In this document: positions 1-19,024 of the stretch, piece after piece
How positions within the stretch are numbered: position 1 is the stretch's first letter
How the letters are laid out: the number at the start of each line of letters is the position of its first letter
Origin: Acutalibacteraceae bacterium
GTDB lineage: Bacteria > Bacillota > Clostridia > Oscillospirales > Acutalibacteraceae
NCBI GenBank assembly: GCA_045589555.1
Contig: JAZNPG010000138.1
Location: 768-64,767, forward strand
Direction of reading: 5' to 3'
Length of the DNA: 64,000 nt
Notes under the pieces: generated by a model
Databases searched by the model: none
The model's input: only the letters and a program-made list of their open reading frames with translations
Told to the model about the DNA's origin: nothing
Position numbers and translations under genes: made by a program

Positions 1-359
1 TGAGAAACTGCAGAAAGATCAATTTCTTCGGTAACCGTTACTTCACCTGCGGTGAATGTGAAAGCGTTTCCGCCTTCATACTCTGTGCCGAGAAGATATG
101 CGGTTTCCCAGATACCGTCTGCACCGGTCGAGCCGCTCTGGCTCAGACCGTTTTCCGCATTATTGGTAAATGAACATTCAATCGCTTCATCATCTGCAAT
201 CAGAGCTGCATTGCGGATAACCTGAAGCGTAAAGAACGATGGAGTTTCAGCTCTTGCAGTTTTACCGATGCCTGCAAGCGGAATGCTGCCTGCCAACAAG
301 GATACCGCAAGAACAAGAGCAAGAACTTTATAAAGCTTTGCTTTGTTATTAATCCTCAT
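1..359 (-). CDS. exported protein, N-terminal fragment (C-terminus lies beyond the window start)
   Basis: Not in the ORF track because it runs off the window. Hand translation from ATG 359-357 gives MRINNKAKLYKVLALVLAVSLLAGSIPLAGIGKTARAETPSFFTLQVIRNAALIADDEAIE..., a signal-peptide-like N-terminus. The ATG overlaps the stop (349-351) of the upstream ORF. Confidence 0.5.
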   Translation of the reverse strand, partial: MRINNKAKLYKVLALVLAVSLLAGSIPLAGIGKTARAETPSFFTLQVIRNAALIADDEAIECSFTNNAENGLSQSGSTGADGIWETAYLLGTEYEGGNAFTFTAGEVTVTEEIDLSAVS

Positions 360-846
360 CTTTTTTTCCTCCTGACATCTGCGATTTTATATATCTGTAG
401 TTTTCGCCGTTAAATACTGCTCTGAGCTGAAAAGCGAGTATAAACAATGCAACGAAAACAAAAACAACCATGTTGTTCAGCTTGAAACCAAACCAGCAAA
501 CCAACAGCGCAACGAGAAAAACAACTGTCAGTATATCAAGAACCATTGCTTCTTTGCTGGAGAAAAAGGTTATTATTCCGGGAAGCTTATGCTTTTGTGA
601 TACTCTGCTGCCGCCTGCCTGCTTCTTTCTCATTGCAGAAACAATGCCGAACAGCACATAAGCTGCAATCAACGATACCCAGAACATTGCACCTGACAGA
701 ATCTGAAGCCATTTCTTACCTGTGTTAAGAGCCATATCGCTTCCGGGGGACATCAGAAGAAATGATACCGAAAACAGAAGCATGAATCCCAAAGAAACAG
801 CAAACAGTATCAGGATTTTTGTAACGGATTTCTTTTGTGTACTCAT
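349..846 (-). CDS. polytopic membrane protein, unknown function
   Basis: ORF 349..888. I moved the start to ATG 846 (MSTQKK...), which follows a GAGGAG RBS and removes the overlap with 860..1531. About four hydrophobic segments; no family recognised. Confidence 0.55.
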   Translation of the reverse strand: MSTQKKSVTKILILFAVSLGFMLLFSVSFLLMSPGSDMALNTGKKWLQILSGAMFWVSLIAAYVLFGIVSAMRKKQAGGSRVSQKHKLPGIITFFSSKEAMVLDILTVVFLVALLVCWFGFKLNNMVVFVFVALFILAFQLRAVFNGENYRYIKSQMSGGKKDED

Positions 847-859
847 ATTGTATATCTCC

Positions 860-1531
860 TCAATTGATTTGCTCGTTTGAATGAACAAATGTTATTTCTT
901 CTTCAATAATAATCTTCGACTTAAGGGTTCTGCTTTCGCCTGATTGCATAGCCGTTGCTCCGTCATACGCCAAAGGAAGCTCACCTGTTGATGCGGAATC
1001 AACGCCAAGAACCGTTGTTTCTCCGTCACCTGAACGGTAGTCCGGAACAGTGGGTTCATCGCCAAACGAAGCATTGCCGAGAACGGTTGTTTCGTTGCCG
1101 AGCGAATCATTTGCAAGAACGGTTGTTTCATTGTCTGTCGAATCGTTGGCAAGAACAGTTGTTTCGTTTTCCGTCAAATCCTGAGTAAGAACCGTTGTTT
1201 CTTCAGCTTTATTGATTTCAACCTTTATTTTTTCAGTTCCGACACTTATTCCGGAAGAAGAAGGCGTATTCTGAACTTTTCCGGATAACGTAATCTTGTC
1301 AGTTATCTTTCCTCTGGACTTGTTAACAGGGCTTGGATTGAATGCCTTATTGCCCGAAGATTCATTCTGCTGCCTTATGTTTTCAATAGCCTTTTTAGCA
1401 TTTGAACCGCTCAGGTCACCTATTACATTTATAATGCGCAGCTTGAAAAACAGGAATACCGCTACCAGAAATGAAATTACGCTTAAAGCAAGACATATGT
1501 AGAAAAGAAGAAGATATTGTTCGTAAGTCAT
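860..1531 (-). CDS. membrane-anchored ETTVL-repeat protein (candidate kinase substrate / FHA ligand)
   Basis: N-terminal TM helix (LALSVISFLVAVFLFF) followed by five ETTVL motifs (EETTVL, NETTVL x3, GETTVL). The start codon abuts the kinase stop (1531/1532). Confidence 0.7.
   Translation of the reverse strand: MTYEQYLLLFYICLALSVISFLVAVFLFFKLRIINVIGDLSGSNAKKAIENIRQQNESSGNKAFNPSPVNKSRGKITDKITLSGKVQNTPSSSGISVGTEKIKVEINKAEETTVLTQDLTENETTVLANDSTDNETTVLANDSLGNETTVLGNASFGDEPTVPDYRSGDGETTVLGVDSASTGELPLAYDGATAMQSGESRTLKSKIIIEEEITFVHSNEQIN
1078..1203 (-). repeat. in-frame 36-nt tandem repeat encoding the ETTVL motif units
   Basis: aagaacNgttgtttc recurs at 1078, 1114, 1150 and 1186 (exact 36-nt spacing). 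A fifth copy lies at 1006-1023. Confidence 0.85.
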
Positions 1532-3280
1532 TTATGCCACCTCTTCTTTCTCTGATGAAGCAACCCTGGCTGCTGCACTGAGTCTTTCTCTTGCATTTTC
1601 AATTTTCGGTGCAAATTTCTGAGCTTCAGTGCGTGTTGCTTTCAGTTTGGCGCTCTTTGAAAGATTTGAGACCGAAGCTTCAACCTTTCCGAGCAGCTCA
1701 TTTATGCTGCTTTCCGTCTGGTCAACGAGCAGATACTCGCAATCCTCGGAAACCGTATTGATGATTTCTTCAAAAATCAGAAGCTTGATATCCTGATCTT
1801 CAAGGTTTTCCGAGAAATTATAAAGCTTGTTCATATTTTCCCAGATACCCTTATAGGATTCATAAACTTTTTCAGGTCTGTTTTGCTTGTCAAACTTGCT
1901 GATGCTGTCTCTTACGGTTGCAATGTCAACAAAAATCTGTGCAAGCTCATATTCCTCTGCAGAATATTCAACCGCATCAGAGAACCAGTCCTTTGCAAGT
2001 GAATATCGGTCCATTTTTATCTCAAAGCAATACCAATAAGCAAATCCGAACTCGTTGCAAACCTCTGCGTGGCCTGCGGGATTGCTGTCTTTCAGCTCAT
2101 CAAAGGGCTTGAGCGTTGAGCTGTAGCCTGAGGTGTTTTTAACCTCAACGCCTATTTTAAGCTGATTAATAACCGAAGCCTCCGCCCTGCTGAAAACAAT
2201 TCCGTCTTCTTCGCTGCTGAGATACATATCAATCAGCTTCAGATACGCATCGGTTTGCGTCGGGTCAATTTCAATTGCCGACAGGTATAGCTTTTCTTTT
2301 TCATCCTGTGATAATGTGGGGTTTTCTGCCTCTGAAATCAGAACGCCGTAATTCTCTGCTTTTTTGTTTTCTGATGAAACAAAACCAAAAATTGCGAGGC
2401 AGGCAAAAACCACGGATAGCGTTGCAGAAACAATAAAGCTTGCAAGCTTTTTCTTTTGTTTGCTGCGGTAAATATTACCCATTTCATTGTGGTGCTCAAT
2501 TGCGTAGAGCAATTCGGCACATGACTGATAGCGGTCTTCAGGCATCTGTGCCGTGCACTTCTGAATAATCGCATCAAGTCCCGGTGAAAGAGAGGGGTTA
2601 ACCGCACGGATGGATTTGTCGGATATAACGTTTTTGCATGGGTCAATCCCGGTAAGCAGATGATAAAGCGTTATACCCAGACAATAGATATCGGTTCTGG
2701 CATCTGTTCTGCCCATACCGCTGCCGATATACTGTTCGGGAGCGGCATAACCGATTGTGCCGATACCCGTTGTTTCGCCAAGGTCAATTTCATAGGTTTT
2801 TGCAGTACCGAAATCTATAAGCGCAATATTTCCGTCAGGCTTGAGCATTATGTTTGCCGGCTTCATATCTCTGTAGATAATCGGCGGATTGCATGAATGC
2901 AGATAGCCGAGAACGTCGCACAACTGCCTTGCCCATTCGATAACATATTCCTGAGGCTGAGCACCGTGTTCCTCCAGCGCTTTATCGAGCGAGTTTCCTT
3001 CAATATAGTCCATAACGATGATGAAGGTGTCATCGTCTTCAATAACGTCAACAATGCTTGGCAGGTTGGGATGCTTTAATCGTTTGAGCGTTTCAATTTC
3101 AGCAACAAGGCCCTGACGGACAACATTGAAATCCAGCTTTCCGTCTTTGCGAATTTCTTTAACTGCCCATGTTTTGTTCGCCTTTTCGTTGAGCGCCATA
3201 TAAACAACACTCATGCCGCCGTGGCCGATTTCACTCAGTATCTTATATTTCCCGTCAAGCACAGAACCGATTTGCAACAT
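1532..3280 (-). CDS. Hanks-type Ser/Thr protein kinase with one TM helix and a helical-repeat C-terminal domain predicted to be extracytoplasmic
   Basis: Kinase motifs GHGGMSVVY, AVKE, YRDMKPANIM, IDFGTAK and GTIGYAAPEQ. TM segment FIVSATLSVVFACLAIFGFV. No PASTA repeats seen. Confidence 0.9.
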   Translation of the reverse strand: MLQIGSVLDGKYKILSEIGHGGMSVVYMALNEKANKTWAVKEIRKDGKLDFNVVRQGLVAEIETLKRLKHPNLPSIVDVIEDDDTFIIVMDYIEGNSLDKALEEHGAQPQEYVIEWARQLCDVLGYLHSCNPPIIYRDMKPANIMLKPDGNIALIDFGTAKTYEIDLGETTGIGTIGYAAPEQYIGSGMGRTDARTDIYCLGITLYHLLTGIDPCKNVISDKSIRAVNPSLSPGLDAIIQKCTAQMPEDRYQSCAELLYAIEHHNEMGNIYRSKQKKKLASFIVSATLSVVFACLAIFGFVSSENKKAENYGVLISEAENPTLSQDEKEKLYLSAIEIDPTQTDAYLKLIDMYLSSEEDGIVFSRAEASVINQLKIGVEVKNTSGYSSTLKPFDELKDSNPAGHAEVCNEFGFAYWYCFEIKMDRYSLAKDWFSDAVEYSAEEYELAQIFVDIATVRDSISKFDKQNRPEKVYESYKGIWENMNKLYNFSENLEDQDIKLLIFEEIINTVSEDCEYLLVDQTESSINELLGKVEASVSNLSKSAKLKATRTEAQKFAPKIENARERLSAAARVASSEKEEVA

Positions 3281-3297
3281 GACGATATAAACTCCTT

Positions 3298-4065
3298 TTA
3301 AACTGTTCTTATGGTAATAACCGATATGTTATCCTGCTCCATCCGGGCTTTATCAAGCTCAATCAGAGCATCCACATTGTTTTTCATTGTGTATTTATCC
3401 TGCATAGCGGCAGGATTCAGAGAAGCATAGATTTCTTCATTGCTTATTTCATGAATAAATCCGTCCGAGCATAGCATATACACTGCGCCGGAAAGATTTT
3501 TTCCTCTGTAAAAAGCAGGCATAACGCTTTCGGAAGCGCCGACACATTGCAGCAAAACGTTCCTTCTGGGGTCTGTCCGTGCCTGTTCGGGCGTCAGCTT
3601 ACCGAGCTCAACCTCGCGGGCAACAACCGTTTGGTCATCGGTTATCTGTCTTACACAGTTGCTTATTTCATAAACGCGGGAATCGCCGACGTTCATTGCA
3701 AGATAACCGTAATCCGTAAGCAAAAGAGCGGCAACGGTTGTGCCGAGATTTATCGACAGCCTTTTACCGTACATGGCAATTTTACTATTCTGCGCCTGGA
3801 CAATTCTTATCCACTGTGTTTTTATTGCTTCAAAATCATCATCAGAAGCACACTGCCCTGAAAACTCCTCACTCAACCATGAGCTGAACGCTTTTATCAG
3901 TTCAGCGCTTGCAAGCTCGCCTTTCTCAAGACCTCCCATGCCGTCGCAAAGAACAGCAAAAGCAATTCTGCCGTTCTGAGATGATGCAACCTTTACCGAG
4001 AGGCTGTCCTGATTGGTTTTTTTCTTGATTCCTATATCTGAGCTTGCAGATATTATATAATTCAT
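3298..4065 (-). CDS. PP2C-family Ser/Thr phosphatase
   Basis: LCDGMGG...GELAS, NVGDSR and LCSDG motifs typical of bacterial PP2C (Stp/PrpC-like). Lies 17 nt upstream of the kinase gene. Confidence 0.85.
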   Translation of the reverse strand: MNYIISASSDIGIKKKTNQDSLSVKVASSQNGRIAFAVLCDGMGGLEKGELASAELIKAFSSWLSEEFSGQCASDDDFEAIKTQWIRIVQAQNSKIAMYGKRLSINLGTTVAALLLTDYGYLAMNVGDSRVYEISNCVRQITDDQTVVAREVELGKLTPEQARTDPRRNVLLQCVGASESVMPAFYRGKNLSGAVYMLCSDGFIHEISNEEIYASLNPAAMQDKYTMKNNVDALIELDKARMEQDNISVITIRTV

Positions 4066-4110: not shown

Positions 4111-5784
4111 TTAAATGAGGATAAAATCAAACTCTTCGTTTGCAAATCTGATCTTATCGCCGGGATTGATTTTGTTTTCAACTCCGCTTTCTATTATTGT
4201 TCCGTTAACAAAAGTATGGTTTGTTGAATTATGGTCAACAAGATAATAATTATTACCCTTAACAACGATATCGGCATGGCTTCTGCTGATTGCGGTGTTA
4301 TCGCTTATAAAATAATCCACATAGCTCTTTTCTTTTCCGATTCTGAAAATGGGTTTATTTACAGCAACCTTCTCGCCGGTTTTGTATCTTACAAGGTGAG
4401 GTACGGGTTTTGCGACAGAGGGAGTCACGCCAAGAACGGTTGTTTCGCCTGAAGCAGGAGCTCCGAGAACTGTTGTTTCGCCGAAATTAGCTGCCTGAAC
4501 CGCAACCGTTTTGGGTGCGAGCTGAGGCATACCTGCAGTAGCAGAAATATCGGCTTTTACAGGTCGGTTTGCTGCGGATGCTGCAGGAGAAGGCGCAACA
4601 GGAGTAATGGGAGGCATCGCAGGAGCAGGTGCGCCGTTAACCGAAGGAGTCTGACCGGGAATTGCAAAATTAACCGGAGGCGCTGCTTTAGGAGCCTTGG
4701 GAGCTTTTCCTGCTTTAACAGGAGGTGCGGGAGGAGCTGCAGGAATGGGCGGAAAATTCATTCCGGGTGCAGGAGCGGCAGCAGGAGCCTGAGCTGCAGC
4801 GCCCTTCTTGTTAGCCTTCTGTGCTTTATAAAGCTCAAGGTTTTCCTTGCTGAATTTTGTAAGCAAAGTCATGAGGCTGATCTGATTTTCGGGTTCAACA
4901 GGAGCCTGTGCAGGTGCACCGGGAACAGGAGGAAGTGCTGCACCCTTTTTGTTTTTCTTCTGCTTCTCAGCCTTCTTGGGAACAGGAGGTGCTGCAGAAG
5001 GCATGCCGCCCAAAGGCATAAGATCACCGAAAGGATCGCTCTGCATGCCGCCTTGAACAGGTGCAGCGGGAGGCGCAACAGGAGCAGAAACGGGAGCAGG
5101 AGCAGGAGGCATCTGAGGTTTGTTCTGAGTGAATGCTGCCTGCGGCTGAGGTGCAGGCGCAGCAGGTCTCTGAACAGGAGGTGCAACTCGAACAGTTGCA
5201 TCCATTCCGCCCGGAGCAGGTCTGCCTGTTGAAAGAGCAACTTTGTCGACAAGCTCCTTAAAATCAGTAATTGAGAAAACCTGAACTCTGTTGAGGTAAT
5301 TAATCAACGTCGCAACATAATCGCAGTTTTCTGCAGAATCAAACTGTGCACCGTAAATAATCTGCTTGAAGAAAAGCTGAAGATCTGTATTGCCTGCGCT
5401 TCCGTTTACAATGGGAAGGCAGATAAGCGTTGTTTCATTTGTTGTTGCATCGACATAGATATGGTCTATATCGAGAACAAAAAGTGATGTATCAACCATA
5501 TATTCTTCAGCTGCTGTATAAGCTGATGCTATTCCCGAGAAAACTCCGAGAAGCCTTTTTTTGGTTACAGAGCCCTTTAAAAACTGGCTCACGGGAATCT
5601 TTGACGAAATGTTATATTTAAGGAATTTATCTGAGTCCATCTGTGTGAACAGAATGGGAGCAATTCCTCTGATTTTATTGTTTGCAAGCATGCCGAAGCT
5701 GAGAGAATCAAATTCATCCTCTGCATTTACCTTATACACCAGATAAGTGTTAACGCCCTGATTTTCAACGGTAAAAATACTCAT
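4111..5784 (-). CDS. FHA-domain protein with unknown N-terminal domain and long Pro/Ala-rich linker
   Basis: C-terminal FHA signature (FRIGK...ISRSHADIV...YYLVDHNSTNHTFVNG...I..GDKIRF). Two GETTVLG motifs about 20-40 aa before the FHA domain. Low-complexity PAPAP region in the middle. Confidence 0.85.
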   Translation of the reverse strand: MSIFTVENQGVNTYLVYKVNAEDEFDSLSFGMLANNKIRGIAPILFTQMDSDKFLKYNISSKIPVSQFLKGSVTKKRLLGVFSGIASAYTAAEEYMVDTSLFVLDIDHIYVDATTNETTLICLPIVNGSAGNTDLQLFFKQIIYGAQFDSAENCDYVATLINYLNRVQVFSITDFKELVDKVALSTGRPAPGGMDATVRVAPPVQRPAAPAPQPQAAFTQNKPQMPPAPAPVSAPVAPPAAPVQGGMQSDPFGDLMPLGGMPSAAPPVPKKAEKQKKNKKGAALPPVPGAPAQAPVEPENQISLMTLLTKFSKENLELYKAQKANKKGAAAQAPAAAPAPGMNFPPIPAAPPAPPVKAGKAPKAPKAAPPVNFAIPGQTPSVNGAPAPAMPPITPVAPSPAASAANRPVKADISATAGMPQLAPKTVAVQAANFGETTVLGAPASGETTVLGVTPSVAKPVPHLVRYKTGEKVAVNKPIFRIGKEKSYVDYFISDNTAISRSHADIVVKGNNYYLVDHNSTNHTFVNGTIIESGVENKINPGDKIRFANEEFDFILI

Positions 5785-5820: not shown

Positions 5821-6888
5821 TCACATTAAAAGAATCTTGTTAAGATCCTCGGAATTAACCATATGGTTAATAATCTGCTCGGTTGATGCATTCTCATATT
5901 TAGAGATGCCGCCTATCATTTTTATGTTGCTGTCAGAAATAATTCTGCCTGTTTTATTGCTGAATTTGTTATACATAAGAGCAACCTTGGGAAGAATCTT
6001 TATGTTTTTCTGTCTTTCAAAAATATCAATTGCATTGTATGCTCTCATGAATTTTTCATTTGCAACTTCAGAACCGTCAGAAACAAAAATAATGTTCTGT
6101 GACTGCGAAAGAATCTCAATAACTGAAGAGGAAATGTAGAAGCCGGTATCAATAATTATATGTTCGTAGGTTCCCATTGTTTTTATCGCAGTAATAAGCT
6201 GCTGAATATCTTCCTTTGTGATTTCAGCTATATCAAGCGCATTCCGGGATGAGGAATAGAAATTAACGCCCGAGGAATCTTCCTTAACATAGCTCTCCAT
6301 TTTAAATACCATGTTAGCTTTCTTGCTTTTAAGGGAGAAAATGATGTCACTGAAATCAAACTGACCGTCGCCGGAAAAATACATATCACTGTTTCCGAAC
6401 TTTTCAAGATTAAGGTAAAGAACTTTTTTGCCCATTCCCGCAAGACGTTTTGCAAACGCAACAGCAAGGGTTGATGCACCTGTTCCGCCGCTGGCAGATG
6501 TAAAGGTGGAAATCATTGCGTCGCCATCGCCGTCAAATTTAAGCTCGATATCGGAAACCTGATCAGAGAAAATGCTCAGTATCTCTTTGTAAATCATCTC
6601 AGCCTTCTGATATCTGCATATGGTTTTCTGGTCACGCAGACTGTGAACCTCGGGAGAATATACAAAATATGCAAAGCCACAGTGAGGGGGAAGCTTCGAA
6701 ACATTGATTTCAAAGCTGTCGCTGGAGATAAAAACATCTATTTTGTTTTCAATAAGACCCGCGATCGCAACATCCATGCTGGAAAACGAATAAATCTCAA
6801 GCTTATCCGCAAACTTCCCTGTAAAGACCGATGCAATACGGTTAAGATAGCTTTTGTTGTCATCCAAAACTGCAACTTTAATTTTCAT
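5821..6888 (-). CDS. tadZ: TadZ/CpaE-like pilus localisation protein (receiver-like N-domain + ParA/MinD-like domain with degenerate Walker A)
   Basis: The N-terminus MKIKVAVLDDN resembles a receiver fold. The central SASGGTGASTLAVAFAKRLA is a MinD/ParA-type P-loop lacking the lysines. The position in a Tad operon supports the call. Confidence 0.6.
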   Translation of the reverse strand: MKIKVAVLDDNKSYLNRIASVFTGKFADKLEIYSFSSMDVAIAGLIENKIDVFISSDSFEINVSKLPPHCGFAYFVYSPEVHSLRDQKTICRYQKAEMIYKEILSIFSDQVSDIELKFDGDGDAMISTFTSASGGTGASTLAVAFAKRLAGMGKKVLYLNLEKFGNSDMYFSGDGQFDFSDIIFSLKSKKANMVFKMESYVKEDSSGVNFYSSSRNALDIAEITKEDIQQLITAIKTMGTYEHIIIDTGFYISSSVIEILSQSQNIIFVSDGSEVANEKFMRAYNAIDIFERQKNIKILPKVALMYNKFSNKTGRIISDSNIKMIGGISKYENASTEQIINHMVNSEDLNKILLM

Positions 6889-6933: not shown

Positions 6934-7413
6934 TTAAGATATTGAGGCAAGAAGAATTGCCATAAATTCAACCAAAATAAAGGGAACAATATTCTGCGTT
7001 ACAGAAAGAAAATATTCCCTTATGAAATGCTCTTCACGCTTCCCGTAAATAAAAACACAGATTATTTTTATAATCTCATATACTGCAAAGCTTACAAGAA
7101 CACCTCTGACGGAAAATCCGAAAAGCCAGGAAACAACTGACATCACCGTGATAACCGTTATTTCAAGCAGCAGAGAATCCTTGGGGATGGGGCTGCCGCA
7201 ATTTTTGCATTTGCCTTTGCATACAATAAAAGAAATAACAGGCAACTGAAGGTACCATGGGATGCCGGCATTGCATTCCGGACAGCGGCATTCGGATTTG
7301 AGAACTGAGAGTGTGTTGCCCCTGCAAAGCCGTAACATATTCGTTGTTGCCATGCCGCCAAGATGGTAATAAGCAAGGCAAATTGCAATTTTTATAATAA
7401 TTGTATTATCCAT
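6934..7413 (-). CDS. membrane protein consisting of a prepilin-peptidase N-terminal (four-Cys) domain only
   Basis: CPECNAGIPWYLQLPVISFIVCKGKCKNCGSPIPKDSLLLEI matches the CxxC...CxxC N-terminal domain of PilD-type A24 peptidases. I saw no GxGD-type catalytic motif in the remaining ~70 aa. Confidence 0.6.
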   Translation of the reverse strand: MDNTIIIKIAICLAYYHLGGMATTNMLRLCRGNTLSVLKSECRCPECNAGIPWYLQLPVISFIVCKGKCKNCGSPIPKDSLLLEITVITVMSVVSWLFGFSVRGVLVSFAVYEIIKIICVFIYGKREEHFIREYFLSVTQNIVPFILVEFMAILLASIS

Positions 7414-8856: not shown

Positions 8857-9426
8857 TTAGTTTCCTGAATAACCGAAAAGGTTACACGATGCATACTTTG
8901 TAAGCTTGACATTCTTGAATCCGAAAACACCGAACCGAAGATTGACAACATAGATTATTTCTGCTTTGACGGTTCCGTTTTTCGCGGCGTTTCCGTCAAG
9001 ATTTATCACTACACTGTCAATATGCATTTTTTTCAAACTTTCTTTTTCAGTTTCGCCTGTCAAATAATAATAAAACAACTTTTCAAAGGTTTTTTGCTGT
9101 TGCGACGCTGATGACTGGTGATATGTTTTAAGCAAGTCTGAAGAAATTCCATCGAATCCGAAAAGGTTCAGAAAAGGATTTAATACTGATGCAACGTTAT
9201 CAACCATCCCGACGGTTTCGGTATTCTTTGAATTCGTAAGCTCTTTTACCATATTATCTGCCGCAATTGACTGAACCGTTTGCGTAGCTGCGTGAGATAC
9301 TGCATTCTGCGTTGCAAAAACACCTGCAAAATTCCATATGAACAGCATAAAAAAGATCAGGAAAAAGAGAACTATGGATGCTTCAACGACCAAAACGCCG
9401 TTTTCGTTTTTAAACTTTTTCATCAC
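8857..9426 (-). CDS. TadE-like minor pilin / pilus assembly protein
   Basis: N-terminus NGVLVVEASIVLFFLIFFMLF resembles the TadE N-terminal hydrophobic motif with Glu. Confidence 0.65.
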   Translation of the reverse strand: MMKKFKNENGVLVVEASIVLFFLIFFMLFIWNFAGVFATQNAVSHAATQTVQSIAADNMVKELTNSKNTETVGMVDNVASVLNPFLNLFGFDGISSDLLKTYHQSSASQQQKTFEKLFYYYLTGETEKESLKKMHIDSVVINLDGNAAKNGTVKAEIIYVVNLRFGVFGFKNVKLTKYASCNLFGYSGN

Positions 9427-12400: not shown

Positions 12401-12738
12401 TTATAAATCGATTCATATTTAATGTTGCTGTCGAGGTTATAAAGCTTCGATGTGTTTCCGCCTTCTGCGTCAGAATTATAGCGGAGCATTGAACTGTAAG
12501 TTTCTGCCTGTGTTCCGTCAGGATCGATTGCGAGGATACCGAATCGGTCAAAAAGATAGGTGTTGAAATTCGCAAGAACAGACATGGACGCTGTTATCTG
12601 TGCATCGGCAAGAGTCTGCCTTGCGCTGACAAACCTGCCCATTTCCATTATCAATGTTCCGAAAGAAAGGAGCGGAATCAGAAGAAGCGAAACCATAACA
12701 GTGATAATACCGGAGGATTTATTTTGATTATTTTTCAC
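9436..12738 (-). CDS. giant TadG-like pilus-associated protein (1100 aa)
   Basis: GTG start. The N-terminus SSGIITVMVSLLLIPLLSFGTLIMEMGRF resembles the TadG/Tad N-terminal motif. The large central region has no recognised domain. The C-terminal part has hydrophobic segments and a Cys/His motif (YHKDETCH...PCKVCNP). Confidence 0.6.
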   Translation of the reverse strand: MKNNQNKSSGIITVMVSLLLIPLLSFGTLIMEMGRFVSARQTLADAQITASMSVLANFNTYLFDRFGILAIDPDGTQAETYSSMLRYNSDAEGGNTSKLYNLDSNIKYESIYNLSDYDVLKRQILEYAKYSVPYEILSNKLDLGSLFDPITNLADKAKDFINNLIDETDESVTTLDKAFYSIGRAEYRAFEINTYFGQDYSKKDYAHDDILSDYIRDSDTSDGNGAIPNNGTPPDYSKLTGYEGRYAAYVKAIDDKRDFLANNPDPKPTYDKAVAIKVGSTGTVSKDDLYKAAVMKFLENDNNKPTEDNPDGASINGRYSLSPTKYTFSVTPGYRDDAYNLKTGEVSIPEKSGTSNETVYLTDAIDALWPNSPAPTNYYELEYYADVSGYDSTSSDSYISSYNSDLKTKGKAIAKQSLVSKLNQECINYNNALAGHNSSINSKAVEYVTDLQKAKSLFEDYAAALEIAAGAGENGKGTIHTAKDEYKDNVDLEGKDSSGKQVSDAESLGSNSSEVEKNLDAVISDFKSKATAARSTAAFLGTLISNVSTTDGSKITYRSHNSDTGIDTVNGGIQVGISNDKLKGRVSRDFTLIDTLYNTEVIKVDESSTEGDENKSNCDELSDIVGDSGSQLDIGNLWKAAKKVLEILNPVPSPYDSSYCMTLSEHSIGKLIKELDQAEGRYNAGDKSYVDNLTGKVTSDAELGEFYDSIVGADNELLGSGSSDFQSKTESLFGEEGKTEGIYNEADENKSTGLGKLIKKIKKLIQTIREAVEAITGLISSIASVVADIVTQTYHALLINTYITQKFPSRMNSAIEGATLVPPDTESLDGESYFSSCCIEYCLWGDNSEKNNQIKTFWLLFGIRAVVNCVQILMDSQAMSLVSSCNLFAPLMFIAMLYLETNIDMNYLVVIGEKVPFWKKDIHLSAEGLAKILSEIGDFDSTKVWVASSGNGKRYHKDETCHMIQINPNGVGLTKKTISEAVNENYTPCKVCNPKTESEPSEDDKKNGYVPLDYDQYLYILLLFVGMNKKLTNVANLMQLETRYYESKKNSGTATFMIKDASTYIRSEVKASYKTMLPMFSLGSSGNSFPELYGLEYVGY

Positions 12739-12753: not shown

Positions 12754-13431
12754 TTAAAACTGACCAAAATATTTGTTGTAGAAATCTTTGATTGCATCAA
12801 CAACATCCGAAACGCTTTTCGCCGTCGAATCAAAAGTTTCGTCAATAAGATTTGATACAACGGAGGCTGTGCTGCCCGTATCAAGAATATCAAAGCACTG
12901 TGCTCTGCCGACAGCCTCAACTTCGATTCTGGAATCAACGATCCCGAAAAACCTTATAAACGGCAAATCGTAAGTAGCTCTGATTGTTACAACAACGGAT
13001 TTTTGCATTATTGAACCGGGAACCTTTTCAAAATCGGTGTTGATTGTCATTCCGGCACTTTCTTTATATAGTCTGCTTGATTTAAGACGGTAGCGCGAAT
13101 ACCAGCCTGCCTTGGTTTCAACTGAAGACTCGAGCTTACCGTGAGCCTCTCCCAAGCTTCCTATCGCATTTGAAATTGTTCTGTAATATTCTGTATCACT
13201 CAACTGTTTAGGGGTAACAAAACCAATAAAAGGATCCTTGGTATAAGTTGAATAAATCTGACCTGCACTGGATGCGGTTTCGTTTGCGATAACCTGCAAC
13301 GACGTTTGCTGATACATAATAAAACCAAGATACATCATTACAAAAATAACCATAAGAACAATCGGAACCACTATTGAAGCCTCAACCACAGTTGAACCGC
13401 TTTCTTTTTTTGTAAATTCTTTTATACTCAT
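12754..13431 (-). CDS. TadE-like minor pilin / pilus assembly protein
   Basis: N-terminus SGSTVVEASIVVPIVLMVIFVMMYLGF (TadE-type motif). Confidence 0.65.
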   Translation of the reverse strand: MSIKEFTKKESGSTVVEASIVVPIVLMVIFVMMYLGFIMYQQTSLQVIANETASSAGQIYSTYTKDPFIGFVTPKQLSDTEYYRTISNAIGSLGEAHGKLESSVETKAGWYSRYRLKSSRLYKESAGMTINTDFEKVPGSIMQKSVVVTIRATYDLPFIRFFGIVDSRIEVEAVGRAQCFDILDTGSTASVVSNLIDETFDSTAKSVSDVVDAIKDFYNKYFGQF

Positions 13432-13455: not shown

Positions 13456-14826
13456 TCAGATATTCCAGAAATACATTCTGATATATACCCAGTATCCGTT
13501 ATCGAATTTTACAAGGCAAACGCCATCTGAATTGAAATAGCCTGCATTAACAAGGTTAAGGTCAAGCACAACAGTACCGCTTTCATTGATGAAATCCCAT
13601 TTTTCGCCATCGCTGACCGCTGCAAATCCGTTGGAGAAAGATTTTGCATCGGCAAACTTGGGCTCGATCATGGTTTTGCCGCTTGCATCTGCATAGCCCC
13701 ATTTATTATTAAGCTTGAACGCAAACCATACCTGACCCTTGTTGGAGCCTGTTGCAGCATCAATCGGGAGCTTACAGTCATCGCACTTGAAGCTGTTGTT
13801 TGCGGTAATGCTTACCGCCTCAGGCTTATCGGCATTATAGCTGACATTGATAATGCTGTATTTGCCGCCGCTCTTTGCAAGAATCATGCCGCCCGAAACG
13901 CATTCCTCTGCAGTATTAAGCTTGATATCTTCATAAGTAGTGTTTGAAAGAGGCTGGAATTTTTTGTTGATAAGAATCCACTTGCCGCTCGTTTCCTGAA
14001 CTGCAGCAACACCGTAGCTGAATCTGCCTGCATAAGCATAATCCTTGGAAACCTTTTCACCCTGATTGTTATAATAAGCATATTTATCGCCGATTCTGCA
14101 TGCAATATTGCCTTCAGCAATGCCGCTGCTTGATTCGATATTATCGGGCAGATATTTCTGTCTTACTCCGTCAGAGCTTAATATAAATACCTTATTGTTC
14201 TTCTTTGCAACGGTGTGACCGTCTGCCGAATACGGAGCAATGAAATCGCAGCCGCTGAGAACAGTTGCAAATGATTCCGTAACTGAATAGTGGTTGCCGA
14301 GCTCCTGAATAACATAATAGCCGTTGGTCAGGTCAATATAATCCGAATATGTTGCATGCTGTCTTTCGTAAAGATAACGGACTTTTGCTTTCACATCGTC
14401 AAGAGCCTTTGAGGAAACCTCATTACCCTGTGCAGCAAGAAGAGCGTTTGAAAGCTCATCATAATCGGTTACTGAATAGAAATAGTTGCAGGCCGCTTCA
14501 TAAGCCTTGGGGTCTTTTCTGTAAACAGACATTGTATCAAGAAGCATTGAAACAAGATTACCGTCGCTCGAAAGCTCACCGTTTTCAATAGCCTTCTTGT
14601 TCATTTCAACAATTTTGATTCGCAGGTCAAGCGAGTCCTCATATGTAAGCGCAATTTCATATTCAGCAATTGCTTTTCTGTAAAGCTGCTCTTTTTCAAA
14701 GCTTTTGCCCGCATTAAGATGGTTCTCATATCCGTTGGAATCCGATGAAACGGTTGAAAGTCCCATATACCACGCAAGCGCAACCGCAACAACAAGAACT
14801 ATACATACAATTGTTTTGTTTTTCAT
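13456..14826 (-). CDS. membrane-anchored WG-repeat protein
   Basis: N-terminal TM helix. Repeated segments of the type NKWGYADASGKTMIEPKFADAKSFSNGFAAV and GKWILINKKFQPL are typical of WG-containing beta-repeat proteins. Confidence 0.65.
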   Translation of the reverse strand: MKNKTIVCIVLVVAVALAWYMGLSTVSSDSNGYENHLNAGKSFEKEQLYRKAIAEYEIALTYEDSLDLRIKIVEMNKKAIENGELSSDGNLVSMLLDTMSVYRKDPKAYEAACNYFYSVTDYDELSNALLAAQGNEVSSKALDDVKAKVRYLYERQHATYSDYIDLTNGYYVIQELGNHYSVTESFATVLSGCDFIAPYSADGHTVAKKNNKVFILSSDGVRQKYLPDNIESSSGIAEGNIACRIGDKYAYYNNQGEKVSKDYAYAGRFSYGVAAVQETSGKWILINKKFQPLSNTTYEDIKLNTAEECVSGGMILAKSGGKYSIINVSYNADKPEAVSITANNSFKCDDCKLPIDAATGSNKGQVWFAFKLNNKWGYADASGKTMIEPKFADAKSFSNGFAAVSDGEKWDFINESGTVVLDLNLVNAGYFNSDGVCLVKFDNGYWVYIRMYFWNI

Positions 14827-14844: not shown

Positions 14845-15588
14845 TTAAAAGTTACCCATCAGCATAACCGCCGAATATCCAATAAGGATAAATGGGGCAA
14901 ACGGGAAAGCTCGTTTTTTGTCACGGTATTTTATAAGCAGGAAAATTCCTGCAACCGATGACGCAATAAGGCTGAAAAGCAAGGTGCCGAAGGTCGCAAG
15001 CGAGCTGGCTGAAAAGCCTATCACCGCAAAAAGCTTCGCATCACCGAAACCAACCGCTCCTCTTGAAACAAGACCCGCAATAAAAAGAATTCCGAATCCG
15101 AGACCGAAACCGATAAGGTCGCTGATGAACAGGTCTTTTATTATATTTCTGCACCACCAGAACTCAAGCAGATAGGTCAGCGCTCTGAGAGCAAGACCGA
15201 TAAGCACGAGCTTGTTGGGAATTATTTTCTTTTTGAAATCGATAAATGCGCTTGCCGCAATTATCACGAACACATAAAAAAGCTTGAAGTAGGATGTTAT
15301 TTCACGTCCCGTTCTGCCGAGAAAAACAACAGCTTCATTAACGGGAGCTGCCGCTGCATTAAAGTTAACAGTGTGCTTGCCGATTGCCGCAGCAATTGCA
15401 AACGCAGCAAAAGCAAACGCAAGAAGGATGATTATTGTCTGCGTTTTGTCGTAGGGAACAAATTCCTTTTTGCTCTCCTCTTCACCTGCAGGAGCAGGCT
15501 TCATATCACAAACGCCGAAGGCCTTAAGCGCAACCCAGACAAGAGCCGTGCCGATAAGCGCCGATGCGGCGTATAACAAATAAATCAT
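14845..15588 (-). CDS. tadV: A24-family prepilin peptidase (TadV/CpaA type, no N-terminal Cys domain)
   Basis: First Asp motif IDFKKKIIPN and second Asp motif GFGDAKLF in a polytopic membrane protein. Confidence 0.8.
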   Translation of the reverse strand: MIYLLYAASALIGTALVWVALKAFGVCDMKPAPAGEEESKKEFVPYDKTQTIIILLAFAFAAFAIAAAIGKHTVNFNAAAAPVNEAVVFLGRTGREITSYFKLFYVFVIIAASAFIDFKKKIIPNKLVLIGLALRALTYLLEFWWCRNIIKDLFISDLIGFGLGFGILFIAGLVSRGAVGFGDAKLFAVIGFSASSLATFGTLLFSLIASSVAGIFLLIKYRDKKRAFPFAPFILIGYSAVMLMGNF

Positions 15589-15643
15589 TGTAAAATCTCC
15601 TCATATTTCCGATGAAAAAACAGTTGTCGCGGAGGGGGATATT

Positions 15644-15666
15644 CCTCCCCGCACAAGGCGGGGAGG
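15644..15666 (-). terminator. intercistronic stem-loop downstream of the pilin gene (partial terminator / stabiliser)
   Basis: cctccccgc-acaag-gcggggagg forms a perfect 9-bp GC-rich stem with a 5-nt loop, 20 nt after the pilin stop. No immediate U-run; a T6 run lies about 30 nt further on the minus strand. Confidence 0.5.
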
Positions 15667-15685
15667 AAACAGATAGAATGCTTAA

Positions 15686-15931
15686 TTAAAGGCCCTGCAT
15701 ACCATCAGTACCACCTGTTGCTTCGCCCAAACTGCCTGCAATTTCACTCCAGATCTGGTTGACCATCTTAGTGATACTCTTTCTGAAGATAACTACGAGA
15801 GCGATAACGATAGCAAGAATAAGGATAACGGCGATAATGTTAGCCTCACCCTTTTCATTCTTAAGGAAACTGTCCATCTTCATTTTTGCCTCAACATACT
15901 TTGCGATGAGGAAATTCTGAAAATCCTGCAT
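15686..15931 (-). CDS. Flp-like / class III signal peptide pilin candidate
   Basis: 81 aa with a strong AGGAGG RBS. A charged leader ends in KNEKG, followed by EANIIAVILILAIVIALVVIF. The position between tadC and tadV supports the call. The canonical Flp G/xxxxEY motif is absent. Confidence 0.6.
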   Translation of the reverse strand: MQDFQNFLIAKYVEAKMKMDSFLKNEKGEANIIAVILILAIVIALVVIFRKSITKMVNQIWSEIAGSLGEATGGTDGMQGL

Positions 15932-16045: not shown

Positions 16046-16912
16046 TCAAAGATTGCTCATAATCGGTAACATGATCATTATGAGAATACCGATAAACATA
16101 ACAAGAATGGGAATAAGCAGCTTGCCCGATGCTTTTTCGCCCTCCTGAAGCAGCTTCTGCTGCTTGAGCTCCCACATTTCGTCGGATTGCTCTTTAAGAG
16201 TAAACGCAAGGTCACTGCTTCCCTTATCAAGACCCTGAATAACCATGGAAACAAATTTAGAAATTTCAGGTGTTGCACAACGTCTTGCCATTGCGCTGAA
16301 GGCATCAGCTTCAGCCATACCGTTATTTCTGTCCTCGGTAACTTTTTTCATCTGCTCATGCATTTCGGTGTTATCGCTGTTTGCAACAAGGTCCCATGCT
16401 TCTCTGAGCACCATACCTGCATTAACCAGAAGAGCAAGAGTGGAAACAATTGAGGGGAATTCGCTGATATATCTTTTGCTGAGTTTTTTGATTGTTTCAT
16501 GAGCCTGAGTCATGAAATAATAATAAACAACAAAAGCCACAACTGCAGAAAGCGCAAACATAATGAGAACCGAATCGGTTTCCATGAAGCAACTTAAAAG
16601 TGCCATAACAACAAAAACTGCCATTGCAAGTGAGAAACGCTGGGCATAGAAAACACGCAGATAATAATCGCCGTATTTTTCACCGTAAAGGATAACCGCT
16701 TCTCTGCGGAGTTTTATTGCGCCCTTGCTTGTATATTTGAAATTTGCCATTTCAAGCAGCTTGAAGCCTGCGCCGTATAAAAATTTAAGCGGAAAGCTTT
16801 TTTCATCCAGCGGCTCAATAAGCGGGTCATACGCCGAGGAGGTTGCAAGCAGGAAAATAAACGCTGCGGTAGCAAGAGTTGCTATAACAAGAACAAAAAT
16901 TGTAACTAACAT
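16046..16912 (-). CDS. tadC: TadC-like type II secretion system F-family membrane protein
   Basis: Size, TM topology and position after the tadB-like gene (3-nt gap). Confidence 0.7.
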   Translation of the reverse strand: MLVTIFVLVIATLATAAFIFLLATSSAYDPLIEPLDEKSFPLKFLYGAGFKLLEMANFKYTSKGAIKLRREAVILYGEKYGDYYLRVFYAQRFSLAMAVFVVMALLSCFMETDSVLIMFALSAVVAFVVYYYFMTQAHETIKKLSKRYISEFPSIVSTLALLVNAGMVLREAWDLVANSDNTEMHEQMKKVTEDRNNGMAEADAFSAMARRCATPEISKFVSMVIQGLDKGSSDLAFTLKEQSDEMWELKQQKLLQEGEKASGKLLIPILVMFIGILIMIMLPIMSNL

Positions 16913-16915
16913 AGC

Positions 16916-17776
16916 TTACACCTCGATTTTCATAACTGCTCTTCCAACAAAGAATGCCGCAACAAAAAGACCGATGGCAATTGTTGTTGAAATCAGACCC
17001 GTGGGAGATACAAAGTTATCGGCAAATCCGCCGTCAGAGAATTTCAGCATTGCAATAAGTCCGACAGGCATAACAAGCATAATATAGAGCTCGTTCTTGC
17101 TCGAAGTGATTTTGGTTTCAATTTCAGCTTCAATAAGAATTTTTTTGCAGAGAATATCATGAGTGTTACGGATAACATCTTTCATGTTGGCACCTCTGCG
17201 ATAGGATGTTTCAAAAACCTTGCCGAAGTTTTCAATATCCTTTATGCGGCTTCTTCTGCCGAAATCAGCAAGCATATCTTCAATCGGAACGCTGTTGCGA
17301 AGACCCTCAATGATAACATCAAGTTCACCGATTATATAGGAATCCTCGGAAAACTGAACTGCAAGATCTTCTCGTGAGGCTTCAAAAGCCTGAGGAACAT
17401 TTTTACCTGCCGCAATTGAGGTTGAAAGCGAATCGAGCAGCGAAATAAACTGTGTGCGCAACTGATTCTTTCTGCTCTTTATTATCTGATCTGCTCTTAT
17501 CGGGAGAAAAGCTCTGCCGAAAAGGAAACCCGCAATTGCCGAAATAACAACGTTGCATATGTAGGTTATCATTGTCGGTCCGTATGCGTCCTGACCGATA
17601 CCGCCGTAGAATATGTAGCCTACGAAAGCACCGACCGCAAAAGCAAGCGCAAAATAAAGAAGCTTTTCTTTCTTCTTCATGTAATAAACGCCGTAGTTGT
17701 AAACCGAAGTATTGATAGCCGAATATAAAAACTCGGGCTCCGGCTCCGGCTTGTTTTTCTTTTTAAAAAGCCCCAT
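16916..17776 (-). CDS. tadB: TadB-like type II secretion system F-family membrane protein
   Basis: Size, TM topology and position directly after the CpaF/TadA ATPase gene. Confidence 0.7.
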   Translation of the reverse strand: MGLFKKKNKPEPEPEFLYSAINTSVYNYGVYYMKKKEKLLYFALAFAVGAFVGYIFYGGIGQDAYGPTMITYICNVVISAIAGFLFGRAFLPIRADQIIKSRKNQLRTQFISLLDSLSTSIAAGKNVPQAFEASREDLAVQFSEDSYIIGELDVIIEGLRNSVPIEDMLADFGRRSRIKDIENFGKVFETSYRRGANMKDVIRNTHDILCKKILIEAEIETKITSSKNELYIMLVMPVGLIAMLKFSDGGFADNFVSPTGLISTTIAIGLFVAAFFVGRAVMKIEV

Positions 17777-17788
17777 TGATTACCCTCC

Positions 17789-19024
17789 TCAAATTTCCTG
17801 ATGATAGCCCATCAGCTTAAGCTTGAAATCATTGATAAGCGGATTTTCAGTTCGCTTGAGTCCGCCCGAAACCTTTTCAAGGGTTGAATTTTCGTCCTCT
17901 TCAAAAACATAAAGGGGATTAAGCATGATTTCACCGTTCTTATATCCCACAACCTCACAGATTTCCATGGTTTTTCTTGAATGATCTCTGAGCCTTGAAA
18001 GGTGAATGATGATATCAACCGCCGATGCAATCTGTTGCCTGATAGCCTCAAGCGGAAGGCCGTCAGCTCCCTGAAGAACCATTGTTTCAAGACGGCTGAG
18101 CATATCTTTAACGGAGTTTGCGTGGCCTGTTGAAAGCGAGCCGTCATGGCCGGTATTCATAGCCTGAAGCATATCCAGAGCTTCACCGCCTCTGACTTCG
18201 CCGACTACAATTCTTTCAGGACGCATTCTCAGCGAAGATTTGATGAGGTCTCTGATTGTTATTGCACCCGAGCCCGAAGCATTTGCGTTTCTTGTTTCAA
18301 GGCTTACAAGGTTATCTATATTAACAATCTGGAGTTCCGCCGAGTCCTCAATGGTAATAACACGTTCATCCTTGGGAATGTAGTTTGAAAGGGCGTTAAG
18401 GAAGGTTGTTTTACCTGAGCCCGTACCGCCGCTGATAAAAATGTTGTATTTTGCTTTAACAAGAATTTCCAGCTTGTCCGCAATCTCCTGCGTTATTGAG
18501 CCGAACTTGATAAGCTGCTGAATCGTCATCGGAGTTTTGGAGAATTTACGGATTGTAACAGTCGGTCCGCACAGCGCAATGGGCGGAAGAACAACGTTAA
18601 CACGGGAGCCGTCAGGCAAACGGGTATCAACAATGGGATTCGCCTGGTTGACTTCTCTGCCGGCGAGTCCAACGATTCGCTGAATAATATCCGTAAGCTG
18701 CTTTTCGGATTCAAAGCGGCGTTCTTCTTTGATAAGCTTACCTGCTTTTTCGATGAAAACATTATTTTCGCCGTTTATCATAACTTCTGTTATGGAATCA
18801 TCTTTCAGAATACTGTCAAGAAGACCAAAGCCTCTGATTGAATCGAAAACACCCTCTGCAATCTGTGCCTTAACAGCAATGGGTAAATAAATATCTTTGC
18901 AGAACTGCTGGGTGATATTATCGATTTTCTCTTTCAGCTCATCATCTGAAAGCTGCTTCATAACAACGTTATCAACAACATACGCTTTTATCTTTTTTTC
19001 AAGCTCTTCGTATCTGTGATCCAC
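17789..19024 (-). CDS. tadA: CpaF/TadA-type pilus assembly ATPase
   Basis: GTG start with a GGAGG RBS. Walker A ISGGTGSGKTTFLNAL, ITIEDSAELQ, and RPERIVVGEVRGGEALDMLQAMNTGHDGSLSTGHANS, typical of CpaF. Confidence 0.9.
   Translation of the reverse strand: MDHRYEELEKKIKAYVVDNVVMKQLSDDELKEKIDNITQQFCKDIYLPIAVKAQIAEGVFDSIRGFGLLDSILKDDSITEVMINGENNVFIEKAGKLIKEERRFESEKQLTDIIQRIVGLAGREVNQANPIVDTRLPDGSRVNVVLPPIALCGPTVTIRKFSKTPMTIQQLIKFGSITQEIADKLEILVKAKYNIFISGGTGSGKTTFLNALSNYIPKDERVITIEDSAELQIVNIDNLVSLETRNANASGSGAITIRDLIKSSLRMRPERIVVGEVRGGEALDMLQAMNTGHDGSLSTGHANSVKDMLSRLETMVLQGADGLPLEAIRQQIASAVDIIIHLSRLRDHSRKTMEICEVVGYKNGEIMLNPLYVFEEDENSTLEKVSGGLKRTENPLINDFKLKLMGYHQEI

Follow-up and report, generated by a model that had tools for sequence, protein, structure and literature searches.

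Control of an envelope nanomachine by a kinase, a phosphatase and an FHA protein is established for type VI secretion (the T6SS) and has been proposed for the type VII secretion system (T7SS). The threonine phosphorylation pathway of the T6SS consists of PpkA, PppA and Fha1 in the H1-T6SS of Pseudomonas aeruginosa and of PpkA, TssL and Fha in Agrobacterium tumefaciens. Here we analyze a 64,000-nt stretch of DNA, referred to as the window, from an Acutalibacteraceae bacterium (assembly GCA_045589555.1, contig JAZNPG010000138.1, positions 768-64,767, forward strand), in which a predicted Tad pilus operon includes genes for a Ser/Thr kinase, a phosphatase and an FHA protein of its own. As in the T6SS pathway, the operon of an envelope nanomachine includes genes for a Hanks kinase of the membrane, for a PP2C phosphatase and for an FHA protein. 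In Agrobacterium, a phosphorylated membrane component recruits Fha (PMC11217815), which parallels the phosphorylated anchor proposed below for the window. The machine, however, is an unrelated one in a monoderm cell, we read the N-terminal domain of the FHA protein as pseudokinase-like, and the outer domain of the kinase belongs to no recognizable family (Pfam, NCBIfam).

Tad-family machines have been associated with FHA domains before. In the Kil system of Myxococcus xanthus, the ATPase KilF has an N-terminal FHA domain and is accompanied by several FHA proteins; its authors proposed contact-triggered phospho-signalling by analogy with the T6SS, in a paper where the word 'kinase' has 0 occurrences (PMC8460266). 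CpaF with a fused FHA domain is a recognized class, class III (PMC12019362), and FHA genes near tad genes have been published for Bdellovibrio. The original prediction for this DNA, made from its letters, knew of no equivalent described for Tad pili; in view of Kil and the FHA-fused CpaF, a statement that none is described is too strong. Kil and the FHA-fused CpaF belong to diderm Proteobacteria or Myxococcota and have the FHA domain fused to the ATPase or in other proteins, whereas the CpaF of the window has no fused FHA domain in Pfam, and a separate adaptor, kinase, phosphatase and substrate-like repeats are all encoded in the operon. In the open-access literature we found no Tad operon with a complete kinase, phosphatase and FHA set.

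Another close relative is the T7SS; its subtypes e and j were defined by a 2024 survey in Bacillota (Garrett et al., PMC11217815). Their accessory set comprises the kinase TseD, the PPM phosphatase TseF, the DUF6382-FHA protein TseJ, the one-transmembrane proteins TseK/TseH and the large Ig-like protein TseI (PMC11217815). The domain architectures of the cassette in the window agree with this set gene for gene, and counterparts of TseD, TseF, TseJ, TseK(H) and TseI are all present. The window cassette has an extra polytopic protein of 165 aa relative to T7SSe/j. The machines differ: T7SSe/j have EssC, WXG100 and YukD, whereas none of these was found in the window or in 80 related loci, where the machine is Tad. 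Among the open-access papers, DUF6382 appeared only in the T7SS paper (PMC11217815); neither a fold for DUF6382 nor the sharing of the T7SSe cassette with Tad systems was found there. In our view, the locus is best explained as a Gram-positive operon for a Tad (type IVc) pilus that is transcribed together with a threonine-phosphorylation cassette dedicated to it, and we give this switch reading as a whole a probability of roughly 0.55.

Within positions 1-19024 of the window there are 17 complete ORFs and one cut ORF represented by its 5' end only, every one on the minus strand. All coordinates given below for features of the operon are window positions on this strand. The order of transcription is CpaF/TadA, TadB, TadC, Flp, A24, WG-repeat, TadE-like 1, DUF5702, TadE-like 2, a 476-aa protein, A24 N-terminal, TadZ, DUF6382-FHA, PP2C, kinase, ETTVL anchor, the 165-aa protein and a signal-peptide protein. 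The intergenic gaps are 114 nt between TadC and Flp and 97 nt between Flp and A24; elsewhere they are 0-45 nt or short overlaps. The original prediction had described about 18 co-directional ORFs with gaps of this kind, and its gap figures agree exactly with ours. It had also named an internal promoter or terminator splitting the operon among the observations that would speak against it. Promoter-like and terminator-like sites are no more frequent in the operon than in shuffled sequence, and the number of minus-strand terminator-like sites inside any of its intergenic gaps is 0. With gaps of 0-45 nt and no intergenic terminator-like site, the layout fits co-transcription.

The arrangement recurs well outside this genome. 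For the FHA protein, 2331 homologues were scored, and the DUF6382-FHA architecture is common to all of the best 120; the 50%-cluster representatives number 4038. A scan of one genome per species with a 26-sequence FHA alignment detected relatives in 292 genomes, from which the best 80 loci were kept. They come from Lachnospiraceae, Acutalibacteraceae, Oscillospiraceae, Ruminococcus-like and other gut Clostridia, spanning two NCBI orders (Lachnospirales and Eubacteriales), and include relatives of Roseburia, Agathobacter, Lachnospira, Ruminococcus and Faecousia. At least three carriers have been cultured: Ruminococcoides intestinale CLA-JM-H38 (L053), Soleaferrea massiliensis AP7 (L059) and Ruminococcaceae AB4001 (L080). 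Same-strand Tad-family genes lie upstream of the FHA gene in 69 of the 70 loci that have at least 3 kb of upstream flank, and at least three of CpaF, TadB, TadC, Flp and A24 are present in 52 of the 58 with full flank. Directly downstream of the FHA gene come PP2C and kinase genes (67 of 71 loci), followed nearly always by the anchor and giant genes. One usual order is (TadZ) CpaF TadB TadC Flp A24 WG TadE DUF5702 TadE FHA PP2C STK anchor (165 aa) giant, where STK is the kinase; in the other, Flp is followed by TadE, DUF5702, two other genes, A24, WG, FHA, PP2C and STK. The clade of the window is unusual in that tadZ directly precedes the FHA gene. These counts support the view that the genes for the Ser/Thr kinase, PP2C and FHA are part of the Tad operon, in an arrangement conserved in two orders of Clostridia. 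The neighborhood survey that the original prediction had called for therefore favors linkage, and its placing of a kinase-PP2C-FHA module in a Tad operon stands on conserved synteny; the unit, however, is not a trio but a cassette of six genes, encoding the pseudokinase-like FHA protein, the PP2C phosphatase and the kinase together with an anchor that carries ETxVL motifs, a membrane protein of polytopic type and a giant protein with Ig repeats.

The first gene of the cassette encodes a DUF6382-FHA adaptor protein of 557 aa (4111..5784; Pfam DUF6382 1.5e-19 and FHA 3.7e-14). In its AlphaFold model, two confident domains are separated by a disordered Pro/Ala/Gln-rich linker. The DUF6382 domain (aa 1-185, 5230..5784) was also modeled by itself, with a pLDDT of 90.4 and a pTM of 0.86. 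The best Foldseek match of this model is the N-terminal domain of TraF from the type IV secretion/conjugation system of Enterococcus pIP501 (8cba, E 7e-6), and the other top matches include the Rv3910/MviN pseudokinase (3uqc, 3otv), Tribbles and many true kinases. Foldseek with the full-length model returned FHA matches only, and the kinase-like fold emerged with the domain-only model. No GxGxxG, HRD or DFG motif is visible in the DUF6382 consensus. Because the model has a kinase-like fold and the Gly-rich loop, HRD and DFG are missing, we read DUF6382 as a predicted pseudokinase-like fold. The match to TraF raises the possibility that kinase-like domains recur in Gram-positive envelope machines. 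MviN, whose pseudokinase domain is among the top structural matches, is itself an FHA partner (3oun). The 2-kb block at 4001-6000, where the Pro/Ala-rich, low-complexity linker of this protein is encoded, is the sole one in the operon region with a positive GC skew (+0.084).

The FHA domain lies at aa 460-557 (4114..4407), and its nearest solved relatives are DgcB-FHA, EmbR, GarA/OdhI and FhaA. Three of these, DgcB, GarA and FhaA, bind phospho-tails in cis, as DgcB-FHA does with its own phosphorylated tail, or dock on kinases. In the 26-sequence alignment, S-R-S-H and N-S-T-N-H-T are invariant, including the loop Asn, and most of the phosphothreonine-binding motifs of the domain appear intact.

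The linker in front of this domain contains two ETTVL motifs (aa 436-440 and 447-451, 4432..4479) in a region with pLDDT <50. Across the 26 sequences, G-E-T-T-x-L is found twice, roughly 10-25 residues before the FHA domain, and is invariant in variable surroundings; two motifs of the [EDQ]TxVL type are present in 69 of the 80 FHA orthologues. The distribution of ETT[VI]L is sharply restricted, with 131 copies in 73 of the 80 FHA orthologues, 102 in 44 of the 66 anchor orthologues and 3 in the ~7000 other ORFs of the 80 loci. The general form in the anchors is E-T-x-[VIL]-L. Many FHA domains select the residue at pT+3, and this form puts a hydrophobic residue there. The activation loop of the kinase in the window carries GETTGI, and an [ED]TTxL-type motif ([ED]TT[CG][LI]) occupies the loop in 62 of 70 kinase orthologues. 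From this distribution, the ETxVL motifs are candidate phosphorylation sites that appear confined to the FHA and anchor proteins. Our search of the open-access literature returned nothing relevant on the ETTVL motif and no mention of an ETxVL motif.

The motif pair of the FHA protein is intact in 0 of 4 loci without a canonical adjacent kinase and in 58 of the 67 others (Fisher p = 7e-4, kinship ignored). Two loci, L051 (11595-20723) and L079 (5563-10861), have Tad and FHA genes without kinase or PP2C, and their ETTVL pair is degenerate; the genes that come after FHA encode BspA-type LRR, Ig, CBM25 or PKD surface proteins. In L064 and L088, a kinase that has diverged is encoded farther downstream.

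GarA and OdhI have a disordered segment with an ETTS phospho-acceptor beside the FHA domain, which binds it in cis and also docks on the kinase. The window shares with them a disordered segment with the putative acceptor motif next to the FHA domain. It differs in the motif itself, E-T-x-[VIL]-L, which is duplicated and recurs as an array on a membrane anchor. The biology differs as well, for in Actinobacteria GarA/OdhI and FhaA-MviN serve metabolic and cell-wall regulation.

The PP2C/PPM phosphatase (3298..4065; Pfam PP2C_2 1.8e-10) has DGMGG, GDSR and DG motifs and matches the NCBIfam Stp1/IreP family at 2e-46, under the equivalog cut-off. The Hanks Ser/Thr kinase (1532..3280; Pfam Pkinase 5.4e-48) has Lys41, YRDMKPAN, DFG and APE. 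By their sequences, the catalytic motifs of both enzymes are intact and conserved. The kinase has one TM helix (aa 283-301, nt 2378-2434), which comes after a KKKK stretch, and therefore the ~280 aa that follow are predicted to be extracytoplasmic. The single helix had been correctly anticipated; the length of the C-terminal domain had been put at ~250 aa, somewhat too low.

Next in the cassette is the one-TM anchor protein (860..1531; TM aa 7-25), with five ETTVL repeats (nt 1007-1201) whose copies start at aa 111, 123, 135, 147 and 171. Since positive charges come after the N-terminal TM helix, the repeats are predicted to be cytoplasmic. In the family, detected in 66 of the 80 loci with its E-T-x-[VIL]-L repeats, a juxtamembrane segment and the C-terminal segment IEYEITFxH are both conserved; the anchor of the window has no significant match in Pfam or NCBIfam. 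The 165-aa polytopic membrane protein (349..846) has three to four hydrophobic segments, and the same start is called in an identical contig. It was detected in 39 of the 80 loci and, again, has no significant Pfam or NCBIfam match. The last gene is cut by the edge of the window, which includes the 5' end of a giant Ig-repeat surface protein with a signal peptide (1..359). The protein is at least 655 aa long on the contig identical to the window, and its N-terminus has no significant Pfam or NCBIfam match. In relatives that keep the synteny, the orthologues are 2700-3700 aa long. They begin with a signal peptide, contain Ig/Big domains and have a TM helix at the C-terminus along with a Lys-rich tail, but no LPXTG. 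The original prediction had foreseen the ETTVL-repeat membrane protein and at least two further membrane or exported proteins, which the 165-aa and signal-peptide proteins turn out to be. It did not include DUF6382 with the ETTVL pair of the linker, the sharing of the motif with the anchor and the kinase loop, the giant Ig protein or the homology to the T7SSe set.

To compare the cassette with its T7SS-linked counterpart at the level of sequence, we used Agathobacter rectalis DFI.5.28, in which a T7SS locus with the cassette was found by tblastn of plasmid records (L089/L090, NZ_CP143948.1). The genes there encode, in order, the Ig-repeat protein, PP2C, the kinase, a one-TM protein of 139 aa that carries two ETTVL motifs, an FHA protein with a weak DUF6382 match, WXG100s, toxin/immunity proteins, YukD and EssC. 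The giant gene is thus first in A. rectalis and last in the window. The locus holds TNT-type toxin and Imm59 immunity genes. The record is labeled as a 252-kb plasmid; it carries nusG, secE, rpmG and fliD and is therefore probably a piece of chromosome. The kinase of the window is 49% identical to the A. rectalis copy over aa 1-543, outer domain included, compared with 46-53% to the kinases of four Tad-linked loci of other species. Identity to the T7SS copy is 50% for PP2C, 52% for the FHA domain and 29% for the anchor, and the C-terminal ~500 aa of a giant-protein orthologue (P0121) are 33.5% identical to theirs. DUF6382, by comparison, is 21% identical to the T7SS copy and 49-73% identical among Tad-linked copies. 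In a neighbor-joining tree, which has no support values, the kinase linked to the T7SS is nested among Tad-linked kinases from Lachnospiraceae. Because the proteins of the window are homologous to the T7SS-linked set, the same cassette serves two unrelated machines. Kept beside Tad genes in about 80 species and occurring by a T7SS as well, it has the look of a portable on/off module of envelope machinery. DUF6382 seems from these identities to be the most divergent part between Tad- and T7SS-linked cassettes, which fits a machine-specific end.

Such homology could also mean that the distal genes are the start of a T7SS locus whose EssC, WXG100 and YukD genes lie past the left edge of the window, with Tad genes as mere neighbors, as reported for T7SSg/h. 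The gene set matches the T7SSe accessory components, and T7SS loci adjoining Tad genes have been reported. We consider this very improbable. Two synteny-keeping relatives, L006 and L008, can be followed through the giant gene, which is succeeded by two small ORFs and then by unrelated genes, with no EssC-like ATPase within 10 kb downstream. Across the 80 loci, a regex scan for multi-P-loop FtsK/EssC-like ORFs gave 0, a regex for WXG100 gave spurious ORFs only, and Pfam annotation of the neighbors contained neither WXG100 nor YukD. The large unassigned ORFs that were checked are DUF5702 or Ig-like proteins. A hidden T7SS core past the window edge was accordingly rejected, as the relatives followed through the giant gene show no EssC, WXG100 or YukD. 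The two small ORFs of these distant relatives (L006 19509-20647, L008 18725-19861) are conserved, encode ~140 and ~227 aa and have weak zinc-ribbon-like matches only.

In the switch that we favor, at slightly better than even odds, threonine phosphorylation would act on the Tad machine. The original prediction had already put forward its core, a signal at the kinase ectodomain that could be turned into pThr marks for the FHA protein to read. Gene content, layout, synteny, intact motifs, the predicted fold, the distribution of the motif and the homology to the T7SS cassette are shown here, and from them we infer each phosphorylation and binding step as well as the output. The membrane kinase would sense an envelope or contact cue through its outer domain of ~280 aa, and the giant Ig-repeat protein, anchored at its C-terminus, and the small polytopic protein may help in sensing. 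The kinase would then autophosphorylate the [ED]TTxL site in its activation loop and phosphorylate the first Thr of E-T-x-[VIL]-L in the anchor tail, which has five copies, and in the adaptor linker, which has two. Reading of pT-x-x-L by the FHA domain could cluster the adaptor at the anchor in trans or, in a manner similar to GarA/OdhI, switch it in cis between a closed, self-bound state and an open one. DUF6382 would engage the Tad platform (TadZ, CpaF or TadB/C) and gate its assembly or activity, and the PP2C phosphatase would reset the system. This reading is supported by the motif, which is shared by the FHA linker, the anchor and the kinase loop and decays in loci without a canonical adjacent kinase. 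It is also supported by the FHA gene staying with Tad where the kinase and the giant protein are absent (L051, L079), by tadZ directly preceding the FHA gene in the clade of the window, and by the predicted fold of DUF6382, whose nearest structures are pseudokinases, among them the FHA partner MviN.

Several observations weigh against the switch. The canonical phosphate-binding Arg of the FHA domain is Lys here, G-K in place of G-R, invariantly across the 26-sequence alignment, and the Pfam Yop-YscD_cpl model also matches the FHA protein. Both raise the possibility of a phospho-independent scaffold role. On this account, the DUF6382-FHA protein would be a structural scaffold of the Gram-positive Tad machine, with another or a minor role for the kinase and phosphatase; precedents are the EssB pseudokinase and the EssC FHA domains of T7SSb and the FHA-like cytoplasmic domain of YscD in the type III secretion system. 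A pseudokinase-like fold recurring in Gram-positive machine parts, such as TraF of pIP501, and an FHA gene that occurs without kinase and PP2C in L051 and L079 would both be in keeping with a scaffold. However, invariance extends to S-R-x-H, to the N in the NxT loop and to the two ETTVL motifs inside an otherwise hypervariable disordered linker, and the motif is common to the anchor and the kinase loop. Kinase and PP2C retain conserved catalytic motifs, and the motifs of the linker decay where the kinase is lost. We therefore regard a purely structural role as improbable.

Other observations against the switch concern what the cassette controls. One locus, L068 (JAEWMT010000136.1, 7942-19388), holds a complete cassette of FHA, PP2C, kinase, anchor, a 154-aa protein and giant genes without Tad; it adjoins genes for alcohol dehydrogenase, adenylosuccinate synthetase and other housekeeping functions, and there are no Tad genes within 7.9 kb upstream. 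With the cassette also accompanying T7SS and once standing alone, its target need not be the pilus machine. Because the same cassette serves type VII secretion loci, the controlled output could lie in the giant surface protein or in a shared step instead of in pilus assembly itself. The cassette might then be an autonomous unit for surface sensing or display, centered on the giant Ig-repeat protein. It would only be co-expressed with the Tad pili, both of which would function in adhesion, and would not gate their assembly; the output of phosphorylation would concern the giant protein, the anchor or a different target. The genes for kinase, PP2C, anchor and giant protein do travel together, as in L068 and beside the T7SS of A. 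rectalis, the latter in line with T7SSe/j (PMC11217815). Conservation of the kinase ectodomain spans both contexts (49% over aa 1-543), and it is in the membrane-proximal C-terminal ~500 aa (33.5%) that the giant protein is best conserved across contexts. These points are offset by the 69 of 70 loci in which the cassette is contiguous with Tad genes in one orientation and by the FHA gene that remains by Tad in L051 and L079 without the kinase and the giant protein. DUF6382 specifically diverges between Tad- and T7SS-linked copies, as expected for a contact with the machine, and tadZ has been inserted next to the FHA gene in the clade of the window. An autonomous unit is a serious alternative to the switch, albeit an unlikely one.

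The sample of loci also limits the strength of the argument for a switch: the 80 loci are those most similar to the query among 292, hence biased, and are mostly contigs of metagenome-assembled genomes. The Fisher test on motif loss takes loci as independent despite their relatedness, and the window stops inside the giant gene, the downstream side of which lies beyond it. Finally, a GC-rich hairpin with an 11-bp stem directly after the pilin gene (15642..15668) could reduce read-through into the distal genes. The gap after flp (15589-15685), folded as 102 nt, has -28.5 kcal/mol (z = -2.6), and the gap before flp (15932-16045) likewise has a stable hairpin (z = -3.4). No U-run directly adjoins the hairpin after flp, and it is therefore not a canonical terminator. 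It may instead be an mRNA-stability or attenuation element, perhaps raising pilin mRNA relative to the rest of the operon.

Tad pili are colonization factors, and almost nothing is known about their post-transcriptional control in Gram-positive gut commensals. The locus gives a complete and genetically compact hypothesis, with a kinase as sensor, a phosphatase, a reader and acceptor motifs that can be identified, in a cassette shared by many gut lineages that are abundant. T7SS specificity does not hold for the accessory genes that were recently assigned to T7SSe as core parts, and this alters the reading of those components. A general logic of phospho-recruitment for envelope ATPases is suggested, in which some lineages have the FHA domain fused to EssC or CpaF, whereas here it is part of a separate adaptor. 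DUF6382 gains a fold assignment, predicted to be pseudokinase-like, and the ETxVL motif gives concrete sites for mutation. A more speculative thought, and one we hold to be doubtful, is that the cassette is a portable contact or envelope sensor of gut Clostridia that is plugged into a T7SS ATPase or a Tad motor and swapped within lineages. The giant fiber would be its antenna, the kinase outer domain would read the state of the fiber, and DUF6382 would be the exchangeable, machine-specific plug.

The remainder of the operon comprises the genes of the Tad machine. Every domain that the original prediction had named, for the Tad machine as well as for TadZ, FHA, PP2C and the Hanks kinase, was matched in Pfam. 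The CpaF/TadA secretion ATPase has 411 aa (17789..19024; Pfam T2SSE 9.7e-61) and a Walker A motif GGTGSGKT. It is followed by the platform proteins TadB (16916..17776; Pfam T2SSF 1.6e-6), with four hydrophobic segments, and TadC (16046..16912; Pfam T2SSF 6.8e-12). The Flp-type major pilin has 81 aa (15686..15931; Pfam Flp1_like 3.5e-16), and its leader, conserved in 50 orthologues, ends in K-G before a hydrophobic stretch. The prepilin peptidase gene (14845..15588; Pfam Peptidase_A24 4.6e-11) encodes a protein of 247 aa with the catalytic A24 domain only. A stand-alone protein with the Cys-rich A24 N-terminal domain and three hydrophobic segments is encoded at 6934..7413 (Pfam A24_N_bact 1.8e-14), 7 kb downstream; the prepilin peptidase is split, and the separate gene for the N-terminal domain was seen only in the closest relatives of the window. 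Two TadE-like minor pilins (12754..13431, Pfam TadE 1.3e-8; 8857..9426, Pfam TadE 3e-4) are encoded on either side of a DUF5702 protein of 1100 aa with a pilin-like N-terminus (9436..12738; Pfam DUF5702 1.9e-13). The second TadE match is just under the family cut-off, and its position is conserved. The place of the DUF5702 gene between the TadE-like genes is kept in related loci, and a TadG-like role is plausible for its product. TadZ (5821..6888; Pfam TadZ-like_ARD 4e-44 and AAA_31) has an atypical receiver and a ParA/MinD-like ATPase domain and matches the solved TadZ of Eubacterium rectale (PDB 3fkq) over its full length (E 1.4e-91), with no difference of note. Its lysine-less P-loop SGGTGAST, noticed already in the original prediction, aligns with CGGVGTST of 3fkq; since the solved protein has the same Walker A variant, this is a known trait of the family. 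From this gene content, comprising the CpaF/TadA ATPase, TadB and TadC, Flp and TadE-type minor pilins, a TadV/CpaA-type peptidase and TadZ/CpaE, the system is predicted to assemble a pilus.

Two more genes lie among those of the Tad machine. One encodes a membrane-anchored WG-repeat protein (13456..14826; Pfam WG_beta_rep 1e-22) with an N-terminal TM helix; in related loci the gene adjoins A24 and usually sits directly before the FHA gene. Three extra ORFs are present between the WG-repeat and FHA genes of L013 (6563-9989), including one for a flavin amine-oxidase-like protein (Amino_oxidase 1.4e-12). L020 and L043 have similar extra ORFs there, and the family scan covered those of L013 only. 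The other is the gene of the 476-aa membrane-anchored protein (7426..8856), which has no Pfam or NCBIfam match and was seen only in the closest relatives.

Upstream of cpaF is an AT-rich gap of 175 nt (19025..19199) as far as a resolvase gene, with TATAAT at 19110-19115 and GGAGGA before the GTG start. It is a candidate promoter/leader of the operon by inspection of the sequence; the promoter scan made no call there. The gene beyond it (19200-19817; Pfam Resolvase, 5e-30) encodes a resolvase-family recombinase and lies directly upstream of cpaF, where many relatives have tadZ. It is followed by an oppositely oriented ORF, which we read from its sequence as putatively purC-like. In the operon, the GC content is 0.39-0.45, slightly less than elsewhere in the window (0.41-0.48, mostly 0.45-0.48).

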